From: Candidatus Midichloria mitochondrii IricVA
Lineage (GTDB): Bacteria > Pseudomonadota > Alphaproteobacteria > Rickettsiales > Midichloriaceae
NCBI RefSeq assembly: GCF_000219355.1
Contig: NC_015722.1
Location: 240,001 to 272,000 of the forward strand
DNA length: 32,000 bases
Reading direction: 5' to 3'
Below the pieces are notes generated by a model. The model searched no databases. It worked only from the letters and a program-made list of their open reading frames with translations, and was not told the origin of the DNA. Made by a program: the position numbers and the translations under genes. Below, piece by piece: positions 25,754 through 28,366 of the stretch (positions are counted from its first letter, which is position 1; the number at the start of each line of letters is the position of its first letter).

Positions 25754-28366
25754 TTAATTACTATCAGGTTTTTCACATCTATTTTGAATATCATCACTCC
25801 AAACTTGCCTTAAAACATATATCTTATTTCCTACCGTATAGTAATCTGTTAGACACTGCCTTGTCGGCGTGAGAGGGGCATTTGTGTCATCAACAGGCGC
25901 TTTATAAGGAGCAGCACAACTACCGACTACTTGGCTTTGATCAGTTAAAGGACTACTGAGACTACTGGAATTAGGAACAGCAGCATTGTTATTAGCGGCT
26001 GCTTTATAATTATCAGTTGCCGACGGTAAAGTAACGTTACCATTTGCAGGAGATGCAGCAGTAATTGCAACACAACTGTCAGCTTTAACACAAGGATTTA
26101 CAACATTAGTTCCATATACGTTTGCAATACATTTTTTATTTGGCGTAAGAGGAGCGGTTCTTGATATGGTGACCCCATTTTTAGTTATGGAATCTGTAGC
26201 GACTACCATGCTATTAGCCATCGAGAATTCAGCTAGCTGAATATTTCTATTCTCTGCGCTCGCTTTTGCTTTTAATCTTGTTAACTCACTTTGGGCTTTG
26301 TTCAGCTCAGTTAAGGCAGTTATTTTGTTTGGGTCGTCGTCAGCTAGGGTTGATACATCATCGTTTAGTTTTATTTCTATATCTCGCCTATAATCAAAAC
26401 CAAATGTTATATCGCATTTTCCATTTTGATCGGCACCGTTTTTAATATCGCTATTTGGATCAGGCTTAAGCCATATTGCATAGCCGCTTCTTTCGGTTGG
26501 AATTTTCACCTCATCGCATGAAATAGGCATTTCCATACAATAAGGTTGAGACAGAGCTTCTAACCAGTCGCTCTCATTGGTTATACAAATTTTATCAGGA
26601 TGACTTGGATCCTTTAAGCTTCCATCACGATTTGTTAACGGACCTTCATAAGATCCAGGGCATGCTGCTCTTTCGGCCACTTCATTTTGTTTAGGAGCAG
26701 CTTTGTCTTTGTCCTTCCAAGGTGGAGAAGAAAACTCAGACCCAAAGCATTTAGATTGATAAGTGGGTAAGGTACACTGCTGCATTTGTTCAGCAACATC
26801 AGTGATAGAACTTGGACAACATTGGTCTCTGTACCTGTTACCAGCTGGTACATAATAAGAAGGGTATTCTCCTGAAATCTCTTGCGTTGTTGCAACACAC
26901 CCATCTATTTCCCAACGCATTTGCGGGGTTCTAACGCTAATCTTTTTAGGATTGCCCGAGGAATCCATTTCAGGAATTATAGTACTAAAATTGATTCCGT
27001 ATACAGAGCCACTGCCTCGTGTAATAATAGCCGATTGATTGCCGCTATCGTCTTGTACTACTTCTTTGGTGTATTCTTTTATTGTGACCGGGGGAGCAGG
27101 TAAAGGTAATTTCTTATATTGCAAGGGCATGGTTGCTGGGTTGTTTGTTTCATTTCCAGCTTTATCTTTTTTATAATACTTCTCATCGCTAACTTTTTTG
27201 TATACTTCGTCGTTATCCTTATCTATAATTATAGCATTACCACTACCGTCCGTATAGGATAAGAATAAATTAACAGCTGGTTGCTGACTTCCAAGTTGAT
27301 TTGCGAGCGTTGTATAGGACCCCATTATAGCGATATTAGATTCTTTCGGGGTTGGTCTTGGAAGGCACCCAATAAAAATATTATCTGGGCAGTCATCTTG
27401 CTCGCAAACACATACTTGAGAAGGATTTGAGTCGGCGACCTTAGCGCAATAAGTTATAGGATAAGTAGGAAATTTTGCACAAACTGGTGCCTCTGCATTT
27501 GCAACGTTTACAGTATCATATTTAGAAGTATCCCCAGGAAATCTATAGCGTAAAAATAATTGGCTAGGAGATAACTTTTGAGGATCATCAAATTTAACAA
27601 TTGCTACTGGCTGATCGAAGCGACTTCCGTTAGCTAACAATGTTTTTATATCAAGCTTTGGATCTACATAAGGTTCCGCATTTGCAGGCATAACCACATT
27701 GAAGGTTGGGGGAATAGGCTTAAATGGTTCGTCAACACATCCAATTAAGTTTTTTTTAGAGGTAAACAGAGAACCCAAAAAGTTAGTTTTAAAATACGCA
27801 CATATTTTGGTTCGTTTGCTAGTGTTTTTTAAGTTGCCTGGAAACAATTCCTGAGGCCGTATTTTTTTTAGTACTACTGTATTAAAGCTACCAAATAGTG
27901 AGAATTCATCATCAGACTTGAAGCTGCTATCCGCAATTTTAGTTTCTGTGTCTCCCCAGCACGTATAAGCTGGCGGATCCCAAGAGAAGCCGCAAGGAAT
28001 AAAAAGGCACCACTTAGAGATTTTTGGTGCACCACATCTTTGCTCGCCATCCAAAATCCATCTTGCCCAGCAATATTGTCTTTGCATTTGATATTGCGTC
28101 TCAAATGGGTCGGTATTAAGCCTTTCCAATTTCATCCTTTCTCCCCAAGTTGGAAAGAAGTCTCTGCATTGACCCTTCACTCCAGCGTCATCTTCACTTG
28201 TTTCCCTTGTTGCATCCCCTGATGGTGGGTCAGATTCAAAAGCGTTTTTTGAACCTACATATTTGCCGCTAAGCCAATCTTTACATAACAGATCTGTTTT
28301 AGCTTCTGTATAAGAGTTTATAAAAAAAATACAAAATAAAAATAATAAAGCACCCCTGTTTACCAT
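25754..28366 (-). CDS. 870-aa exported cysteine-rich protein of unknown family, translationally coupled to the VirB4-like gene
   Basis: It is a long intact ORF in a genome full of pseudogenes. The N-terminal signal peptide is MVNRGALLFLFCIFFINSYTEA|K. I see no further hydrophobic helices. There are about 31 Cys in the mature part by my count, often in short-spaced groups (CVCEQDDC, QCC, CMEMPISC, CVKADSC). A coiled-coil-like segment is LTELNKAQSELTRLKAKASAENRNIQLAEF. Its start overlaps the upstream stop as TAATG. Confidence 0.8.
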   Translation of the reverse strand: MVNRGALLFLFCIFFINSYTEAKTDLLCKDWLSGKYVGSKNAFESDPPSGDATRETSEDDAGVKGQCRDFFPTWGERMKLERLNTDPFETQYQMQRQYCWARWILDGEQRCGAPKISKWCLFIPCGFSWDPPAYTCWGDTETKIADSSFKSDDEFSLFGSFNTVVLKKIRPQELFPGNLKNTSKRTKICAYFKTNFLGSLFTSKKNLIGCVDEPFKPIPPTFNVVMPANAEPYVDPKLDIKTLLANGSRFDQPVAIVKFDDPQKLSPSQLFLRYRFPGDTSKYDTVNVANAEAPVCAKFPTYPITYCAKVADSNPSQVCVCEQDDCPDNIFIGCLPRPTPKESNIAIMGSYTTLANQLGSQQPAVNLFLSYTDGSGNAIIIDKDNDEVYKKVSDEKYYKKDKAGNETNNPATMPLQYKKLPLPAPPVTIKEYTKEVVQDDSGNQSAIITRGSGSVYGINFSTIIPEMDSSGNPKKISVRTPQMRWEIDGCVATTQEISGEYPSYYVPAGNRYRDQCCPSSITDVAEQMQQCTLPTYQSKCFGSEFSSPPWKDKDKAAPKQNEVAERAACPGSYEGPLTNRDGSLKDPSHPDKICITNESDWLEALSQPYCMEMPISCDEVKIPTERSGYAIWLKPDPNSDIKNGADQNGKCDITFGFDYRRDIEIKLNDDVSTLADDDPNKITALTELNKAQSELTRLKAKASAENRNIQLAEFSMANSMVVATDSITKNGVTISRTAPLTPNKKCIANVYGTNVVNPCVKADSCVAITAASPANGNVTLPSATDNYKAAANNNAAVPNSSSLSSPLTDQSQVVGSCAAPYKAPVDDTNAPLTPTRQCLTDYYTVGNKIYVLRQVWSDDIQNRCEKPDSN

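Follow-up and report, generated by a model that had tools for sequence, protein, structure and literature searches.

What is the role of a large, predicted exported, Cys-rich protein encoded directly behind a VirB4 paralog that has lost its ATPase motifs? This question is raised by a 32,000-nucleotide stretch of the genome of Candidatus Midichloria mitochondrii IricVA (NC_015722.1, positions 240,001 to 272,000; in its entirety referred to as the window), in which the gene for an 870-amino-acid (aa) protein overlaps the end of rvhB4-II, the second virB4-type gene of the Rickettsiales vir homologue (rvh) type IV secretion system (T4SS). Since 2009, two puzzles have surrounded the rvh system of Rickettsia, Wolbachia, Anaplasma, Orientia, and their relatives, namely that a second VirB4 whose ATPase sites are dead is kept in every lineage and that host contact is achieved without a VirB5, of which the system has no equivalent (PMC10732058). 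We find that the Cys-rich gene is inherited and lost together with rvhB4-II, which provides a concrete handle on both puzzles in the form of a co-inherited, exported partner of RvhB4-II. Its product is probably tied in function to RvhB4-II and the rvh T4SS, and the balance of the evidence leans slightly toward the two genes constituting one conserved module of this system. The protein is, furthermore, a candidate surface factor of the mitochondria-invading Midichloria.

The Cys-rich gene and the adjoining rvhB4-II

The Cys-rich gene is located on the minus strand at 25754..28366, with its stop codon at 25754-25756, and is intact, as supported by the open reading frame (ORF) listing, its homologs, and the ratio of nonsynonymous to synonymous substitution rates (dN/dS). 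The extent of this Cys-rich ORF had been given exactly in a preliminary description of this DNA. Its 870-aa product contains 32 Cys (3.7% of residues), one of them inside the predicted signal peptide, so that 31 are left in the mature protein; this count is the maximum of the genome and lies above the 99th percentile of its 568 ORFs of at least 200 aa. No paralog of the protein was found in its genome. Both the Cys-rich gene and rvhB4-II are under purifying selection, with dN/dS values of 0.18 and 0.23, respectively, in comparison to a strain with 97% amino-acid identity. A scan for promoters and terminators yielded hits that were not above shuffled controls.

The N-terminal 22 residues (MVNRGALLFLFCIFFINSYTEA, followed by Lys; 28301..28366, minus strand) read as a Sec-type signal peptide with the YTEA/K cleavage context proposed earlier. 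They show the three regions typical of such a sequence, with a positively charged n-region (MVNR) preceding a 13-residue hydrophobic core (GALLFLFCIFFIN) and the segment SYTEA in front of the Lys, with small residues at -3 and -1. This call is based on a crude rule and on inspection of the sequence rather than on a dedicated predictor; by the same rule, 39 of 46 family members have a signal-peptide-like N-terminus, and the N-terminal sequence itself is not conserved. Past residue 40, the protein has no hydrophobic segment (the highest 19-residue Kyte-Doolittle mean is 0.90) and, therefore, no transmembrane helix is predicted. Moreover, the C-terminus reads ...EKPDSN and is devoid of a terminal Phe, and the preliminary description thus holds on both points. 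A lipoprotein was ruled out, as the 870-aa protein lacks a lipobox, and so was an autotransporter or other beta-barrel protein, with neither a terminal Phe nor a barrel signal being present.

The richness in potential disulfides had been considered odd for a reduced endosymbiont. This concern was not borne out: the proposed check of the genome, a single 1,183,732-bp contig, for dsbA and dsbB found two DsbA-family proteins and one DsbB, and the Cys-rich family is widespread in the order. Since a periplasmic disulfide machinery exists, the heavy Cys load is not paradoxical. Taken together, there is little doubt that the 870-aa product is a real, exported, and disulfide-bonded protein.

Immediately upstream on the same strand lies rvhB4-II (28366..30612), which encodes a divergent VirB4 paralog of 748 aa (PF03135, 7.9e-15; TIGR00929, 5.4e-83, far below the model cut-off). 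Its TAA stop codon (28366-28368) shares one base with the ATG of the Cys-rich gene (TAATG), and a Shine-Dalgarno-like AAGAGGA (28376..28382, minus strand) is found inside the 3' end of rvhB4-II, 9 nt upstream of this ATG. From this arrangement, the Cys-rich gene is predicted to be translationally coupled to rvhB4-II. An alignment with 30 VirB4 copies revealed that RvhB4-II has a degenerate Walker A motif (GPEESGKE, 29257..29280, minus strand) and that its Walker B position reads IIAVNSDF instead of hhhhDEAW; in other Midichloriaceae genera, Walker A is kept (GPKNCGKT and GPKGTGKT) and Walker B is lost as well. The genome encodes two VirB4 proteins, and the canonical virB4-I (~800-810 aa) is found at ~671-673 kb, beside VirB6-like membrane proteins, one of which is the other Cys-rich protein of the genome (866 aa). 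The degenerate Walker motifs and the presence of a canonical VirB4 elsewhere in the genome identify the VirB4 of the window as RvhB4-II, the gene of which lies apart from virB3 and virB6. In a VirB4 tree, the RvhB4-I clade has 100% support, and a branch supported at 99% separates the copies adjacent to a Cys-rich partner from this clade. RvhB4-II has been described as having no ATPase active sites, a function that is not known, and a position "well separated" from the other rvh loci (PMC4676284). The literature that we searched contains no paper mentioning a partner of rvhB4-II.

Co-inheritance of the pair across the Rickettsiales

The 870-aa protein does not stand alone. A word-indexed search returned 9 relatives, and a hidden Markov model (HMM) search of 1.84 billion representatives extended the family to 95 clusters (50% identity), of which 62 fall below 1e-30. 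The nearest protein (97% identity) is labeled Candidatus Midichloria sp., and all named family members belong to the Midichloriaceae (Midichloria, Lariskella, or "Midichloriaceae bacterium") and are annotated as hypothetical proteins. Across 46 members, 28 of the 31 mature Cys are conserved in at least 63% of the sequences, and 17 of these reach 90% or more; C120, C125, and C136 alone are lineage-specific. Full-length matches were obtained in 19 of the 23 Midichloriaceae genomes searched, and other Rickettsiales families gave domain-level hits only. The search of genome contigs for related loci found one locus only. The family is undescribed; exported T4SS accessories and adhesins, the functional class proposed for it, are known.

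Joint inheritance and loss can be followed within the Midichloriaceae (labels used in this analysis: f, family; G, genome; g, genus; L, locus; P, relative protein). A comparison of genome coordinates placed the Cys-rich gene next to rvhB4-II in at least 10 genera of this family. In the public assemblies examined, the Cys-rich gene comes after a VirB4 gene of 748-770 aa each time, with the exception of L004, a locus of a Midichloriaceae metagenome-assembled genome (JBKEHD010000031) in which two tandem family paralogs of 864 and 821 aa are encoded and VirB4 is not nearby. The flanks of the pair are unrelated each time and consist of flagellar genes and recR, Tim44 and MltA, RNase H, or a SPOUT methylase. 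Furthermore, the four Midichloriaceae genomes without a full-length Cys-rich gene are also without an intact rvhB4-II. G207, a 0.9-Mb genome from the same genus as the window, encodes neither VirB4 nor the Cys-rich partner; only weak fragments were found in G282 and G173, and contig ends interrupt the gene in G100. In G243, another genome of the same genus (L025 and L030), many stop codons disrupt both the Cys-rich gene and rvhB4-II, the latter at 17 positions, and virB4-I is a pseudogene as well. Decay of the T4SS seems to be under way in the genus Midichloria. In a metatranscriptome study, degradation of the T4SS was reported for a Midichloria strain that stays out of mitochondria (PMC11650858). 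This fits the joint decay described here, and the strain of that study is not equated with G243 or G207.

The same comparison bears on the possibility that the Cys-rich protein is an envelope protein outside type IV secretion, such as a general surface adhesin or a structural wall protein, which shares an operon with rvhB4-II for co-regulation or for historical reasons. In line with this, the protein has no homology to any T4SS component, and the partner is unlinked in genus g2 (G026 and G161) as well as in L004. Moreover, the family has giant relatives in f23 and f24 (L112-L115; 1432-2641 aa with 71-103 Cys), which have only the C-terminal 4-Cys module in common with it and are not adjacent to VirB4; a search with the giant f24 relative led to unnamed proteins only. 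However, the adjacency, often with overlapping codons, has been kept across approximately 11 families despite changing flanks, and both genes have been pseudogenized or lost jointly within the genus Midichloria. We consider a role outside type IV secretion improbable, and the preferred assignment of the Cys-rich gene to the rvh system draws on the linkage in other Rickettsiales families as well.

For these families, the best RvhB4-II-like hit was taken in 90 Rickettsiales genomes and the gene following it was read. The next same-strand gene often overlaps the VirB4 stop codon. A large Cys-rich protein is encoded after the RvhB4-II-type VirB4 in ten families, all of whose partners are devoid of a polytopic membrane region and, where the start can be assigned clearly (not in f20 and f38), carry a signal peptide. 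The partners comprise 853-924 aa with 43-53 Cys in f12 (NOVO_02340 of Rickettsiales bacterium Ac37b and the protein of a Dermacentor endosymbiont), 1461-1589 aa with 61-63 Cys in f37, 1155-1240 aa with 56 Cys in f38, and 983 aa with 36 Cys in f36 (37 in a 1007-aa reading). Further partners were found in f20 (~1000 aa, 33 Cys), f28 (816 aa, 26 Cys), f14 (762 aa, 27 Cys), f22 (567 aa, 19 Cys), and f35 (487 aa, 16 Cys), as well as, by position only, in f33 (1265-1647 aa, 32-39 Cys). With the Midichloriaceae profile, E-values of 1.6e-19 (f12), 6.5e-9 (f37), 1.2e-6 (f38), and 7.6e-5 (f35) were obtained in a 14-sequence set, and these same proteins reach 1e-7 to 1e-10 in per-genome searches. The profile hits are collinear, covering the core (positions 190-325) and then the C-terminal modules (715-810), and the partners have the motifs h-C-A-Y and G-C-V-D/E-x-P-x-x-P-x-P-P-[FY]-C in common. 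In f8, f10, f13, f15, f17, f19, and f29, the slot of the partner is occupied by a VirB6-like membrane protein. A derivation of the partner from a VirB6 paralog, for which the shared slot and a hydrophobic hairpin in some partners might speak, is not supported, as HMM and BLAST comparisons show no similarity.

This hydrophobic hairpin, which is ~40 aa long and rich in Gly and Ala, lies between the CAY and GCVD motifs in L071, L078, L082, L083, and L084 (f36, f12, and f37). It gives a weak Pfam glycine-zipper match (1.3e-4, below the cut-off) and is absent from the Midichloria protein. Its presence in partners outside the Midichloriaceae suggests that these may insert into a membrane.

The state of the Walker motifs differs between the families. 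The partner-linked VirB4 of f1, f12, and f37 has degenerate motifs; that of the basal families f14, f35, f36, and f38 keeps canonical Walker A and B. The pairing is therefore independent of a dead ATPase, and, judging from these motifs, it seems to be older than their loss. This bears on the idea that the Cys-rich protein is a periplasmic regulator or plug, which would form an alternative sub-assembly with the inactive RvhB4-II and gate the rvh channel without any host contact. Such a role would agree with the proposal that Rvh-II proteins modulate or autoregulate the system (PMC4676284, PMC10732058), and with the strict co-occurrence of the Cys-rich protein with rvhB4-II. However, the intact Walker motifs in the basal families do not sit well with an inactive sub-assembly, and large variable module arrays, in proteins of up to 1589 aa with 61-63 Cys, would be unusual for a plug. 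Furthermore, VirB4 is cytoplasmic or inner-membrane-associated, and a contact with it would be indirect, the Cys-rich protein being exported. We give little credence to a plug and continue to favor an accessory of the rvh machine.

Conserved core and variable C-terminal modules

The architecture of the 870-aa protein (all coordinates on the minus strand) was delineated from alignments, conservation, and AlphaFold2 models. Following the signal peptide, the N-terminal region (residues 23-140, 27947..28300) is marked in alignments by C28, C67, a TWGER motif (73-77), C99, and C111. The Trp/Cys-rich string noted previously was recovered within it as a lineage-specific stretch at residues 99-139. 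The family core (residues 141-345, 27332..27946), as defined by the conservation profile, motif comparison, and profile hits at positions 190-325, is the most conserved part of the protein and is common to partners in other families (f12, f36, f37, and f35). Its motifs are I-C189-A-Y, followed by L-I-G-C210-V-D-E-P-x-x-P-x-P-P and by C319/C321/C326/G-C334-x-x-R-P, with ICAY at residue 188 and IGCVDEPFKPIPP at residue 208.

The core is followed by a predicted beta-rich domain (residues 346-489, 26900..27331; AlphaFold2 strands with a pLDDT of ~70-85), which holds the K/D/N-rich stretch at residues 382-409. While this string is present as described previously, it does not represent a disordered segment of low complexity: AlphaFold2 places beta strands here with a pLDDT of ~80, D382 is invariant in ten aligned close relatives, and the stretch is partly conserved. 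The Cys-rich region that comes next (residues 490-605, 26552..26899) includes C490, C516/517, C531, C540, C569-P-G, and C594, with conservation of 0.63-1.0. Two 4-Cys modules complete the protein. Module 1 (residues 606-764, 26075..26551), delimited by a model of the C-terminal 265 aa and by alignment, contains C617, C651, C746, and C759, with the conserved C610 near its upstream edge. A long helix is inserted into this module; its existence had been anticipated, but at residues ~655-690, whereas the AlphaFold2 models place it at 679-705. Module 2 (residues 765-870, 25757..26074) contains C765, C817, C838, W856, and C864 and is tentatively Sushi/CCP-like.

The full AlphaFold2 model, based on 10 sequences, has a mean pLDDT of 67 and is mostly beta; it is poor for residues 1-140 (pLDDT 30-65) and 517-552, and good from residue ~560 on. 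Modeled alone, the C-terminal 265 residues reach a pLDDT of 89.3 and a pTM of 0.85, and in this model they fold confidently into the two 4-Cys modules. Clear homology to a characterized family, which would have made the protein a known one, was not found. Profile searches of Pfam (E<=0.1), NCBIfam, and PDB sequences gave no match for the 870-aa protein, and Foldseek returned nothing at E<=0.001 for the full model against PDB and BFVD. With the C-terminal model (pLDDT 89), nothing significant was found by Foldseek in PDB, the CCP pair of complement receptor CR1 ranking second (E=1.2).

Both terminal modules have a four-Cys pattern with a Trp preceding the last Cys. They are faintly alike, since an HMM of module 2 matches residues 615-648 (iE 0.019), and the earlier statement that internal repeats are absent was nearly right apart from this weak similarity. 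In the relatives P0038 and P0052, the module HMM detects 2-3 copies of the last 4-Cys module. In the distant relatives P0058 and P0054, C-terminal arrays score above the Pfam Sushi threshold (8.1e-10 for P0058); the module HMM matches the P0058 repeats weakly (iE ~1e-3), and the window modules have no match to Pfam Sushi (PF00084) even at E<=10. We therefore refer to the C-terminal modules of the 870-aa protein as Sushi/CCP-like only tentatively. The number of C-terminal modules in relatives varies from none, in 589-aa forms of genus g4, to arrays. Since these 589-aa forms lack the modules, variability resides at the C-terminal end and conservation in the N-terminal two thirds of the protein. 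The variable module number fits a ligand-binding end, as expected.

The division into a conserved and a variable part is also relevant to whether the protein is itself a secreted substrate. The preliminary description had listed an effector role among its options. Substrates recruited by VirD4 normally lack Sec signal peptides, and the classical form of this role is therefore unlikely. A two-step route is conceivable, in which the protein would be transferred by Sec to the periplasm, would fold and acquire disulfides there, and would leave through the rvh T4SS to act as a soluble host ligand or effector, on the model of pertussis toxin and the Ptl system. The signal peptide, the many Cys with their potential for disulfides, the lack of an anchor, and the linkage to a T4SS gene are all in agreement with such a route, and C-terminal modules that vary are what a host-facing protein would have. 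However, the hydrophobic Gly-rich hairpin in homologs outside the Midichloriaceae suggests a membrane-bound state, the N-terminal 600 aa are conserved in the manner of a structural part, and the linkage is to an ATPase paralog and not to the gatekeeper rvhD4. A two-step substrate of the Ptl kind is thus a rather remote prospect, and a structural accessory of the rvh machine remains preferred.

Outside the pair, the window contains several further features. Directly 3' of the Cys-rich gene, a remnant of an IS982-type transposase (24381-25298) is spread over three overlapping frames (ORFs 24777-24965, 24818-25261, and 24969-25292). On the other side, 5' of rvhB4-II (~30700-31715, minus strand), FG-GAP-like and Thr-rich frames are broken by stop codons (e.g., after ...VSVLLGNGDRTF), which looks like a dead surface-protein gene, as read from these frames. 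Furthermore, 22790-24271 encodes a methionyl-tRNA ligase in a short form of 493 aa. It matches positions 4-509 of a 648-position NCBIfam model and, therefore, lacks the C-terminal appended domain.

Proposed role and comparison with known systems

Based on these results, we propose that the Cys-rich protein would be exported by Sec and oxidized by DsbA and DsbB into a rigid, multi-domain, mostly beta protein, which would act in the envelope as an accessory of the rvh machine. RvhB4-II, as a VirB4 that presumably no longer hydrolyzes ATP, may serve the assembly or docking of this protein. The conserved N-terminal two thirds with their CAY...GCVDxPxxPxPP core would represent the docking part, and the variable C-terminal 4-Cys modules would project and bind a host ligand, possibly on mitochondria in this organism. 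The Cys-rich protein could thereby be an adhesin or tip-like part in a system without VirB5.

The adhesin or pilus-tip-like role considered in the preliminary description gains support from the coupling to a VirB4 paralog and from a pairing that is conserved across the Rickettsiales. Nevertheless, that the protein is specifically a surface-exposed adhesin or tip is a tentative suggestion, somewhat less probable than its opposite. Still more speculative, and in our estimate rather unlikely, is the most far-reaching version, in which the protein would be the missing extracellular part of the rvh system and stand in for VirB5 as tip adhesin, the catalytically dead RvhB4-II would have persisted through more than 1 billion years of symbiont evolution as its dedicated assembly or docking factor, and the modules would attach to host membranes or mitochondria.

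Several points weigh against a role in the rvh machine, or against parts of the mechanism proposed for it. The link to Rvh proteins consists of gene adjacency, which does not by itself establish an interaction. As described above, the pair is unlinked in genus g2, the partner in L004 is not beside rvhB4-II, and the partner-linked VirB4 of the basal families keeps canonical Walker motifs. Moreover, the Sushi/CCP likeness of the window modules is weak, and the 870-aa protein lacks a lipobox, a beta-barrel, an anchor, and any known secretion signal beyond Sec. In the Pfam, NCBIfam, PDB-sequence, and Foldseek searches, it showed no similarity in sequence or fold to VirB5, TraN, or known T4SS parts.

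The proteins most similar in kind are unnamed hypothetical proteins encoded after rvhB4-II, including NOVO_02340 (AIL64863.1) of Ac37b, MFV9898786.1 of a Dermacentor Rickettsiales endosymbiont, and WP_339052600.1 of a Lariskella endosymbiont. They share with the window protein the signal peptide, a very high Cys content, the genomic position, the core motifs, and the C-terminal 4-Cys modules. The unnamed partners range in length from 487 to 1589 aa, and those of the Ac37b type and of f36, f37, and f38 have the Gly-rich hairpin between the core motifs, which the window protein lacks.

Among named T4SS components, VirB5/TrwJ/TraC (PF07996), the tip adhesin of P-type systems, is exported by Sec, has its gene directly behind virB4 in canonical operons, and presumably makes contact with the target cell. 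The window protein resembles it in its predicted export and in being encoded after a virB4-type gene. However, VirB5 is helical and has ~220 aa, while the window protein has 870 aa, is mostly beta in the AlphaFold2 model, and is Cys-rich. An identity with VirB5/TraC was rejected, as PF07996 has no match in the window protein; none was found in the genome either, in a search that had no positive control. VirB6/TrbL was likewise rejected, since the window protein contains no hydrophobic segment beyond its signal peptide and shows no similarity to the four RvhB6-like paralogs of the genome.

At the level of domains, the likeness to Sushi/CCP (PF00084) lies in the four Cys with a Trp before the last (C765 ... 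G-x-C817 ... C838 ... W856 ... C864) and in the tandem arrangement with short linkers; unlike Sushi/CCP domains, the window modules have long inserts. A similar overall layout is known from EtpE (ECH1038), an outer-membrane invasin of Ehrlichia chaffeensis whose signal peptide and conserved N-terminal portion (~700 aa) precede a variable middle and a C-terminal portion binding a host receptor (PMC3789761). This comparison with the window protein was made by description, and adjacency of EtpE to virB4 is not reported in that study (PMC3789761).

Finally, TraN (PF06986), the mating-pair stabilization adhesin of F-type systems, was rejected as an identity, since the window protein has no Pfam or NCBIfam match to it and the neighboring gene encodes a P-type VirB4; TraN is an outer-membrane protein of F-type rather than P-type or rvh systems. 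As a model of how the window protein might work, TraN nevertheless comes closest. TraN is a large, exported, Cys-rich T4SS accessory, the variable part of which binds a surface protein of the partner cell.

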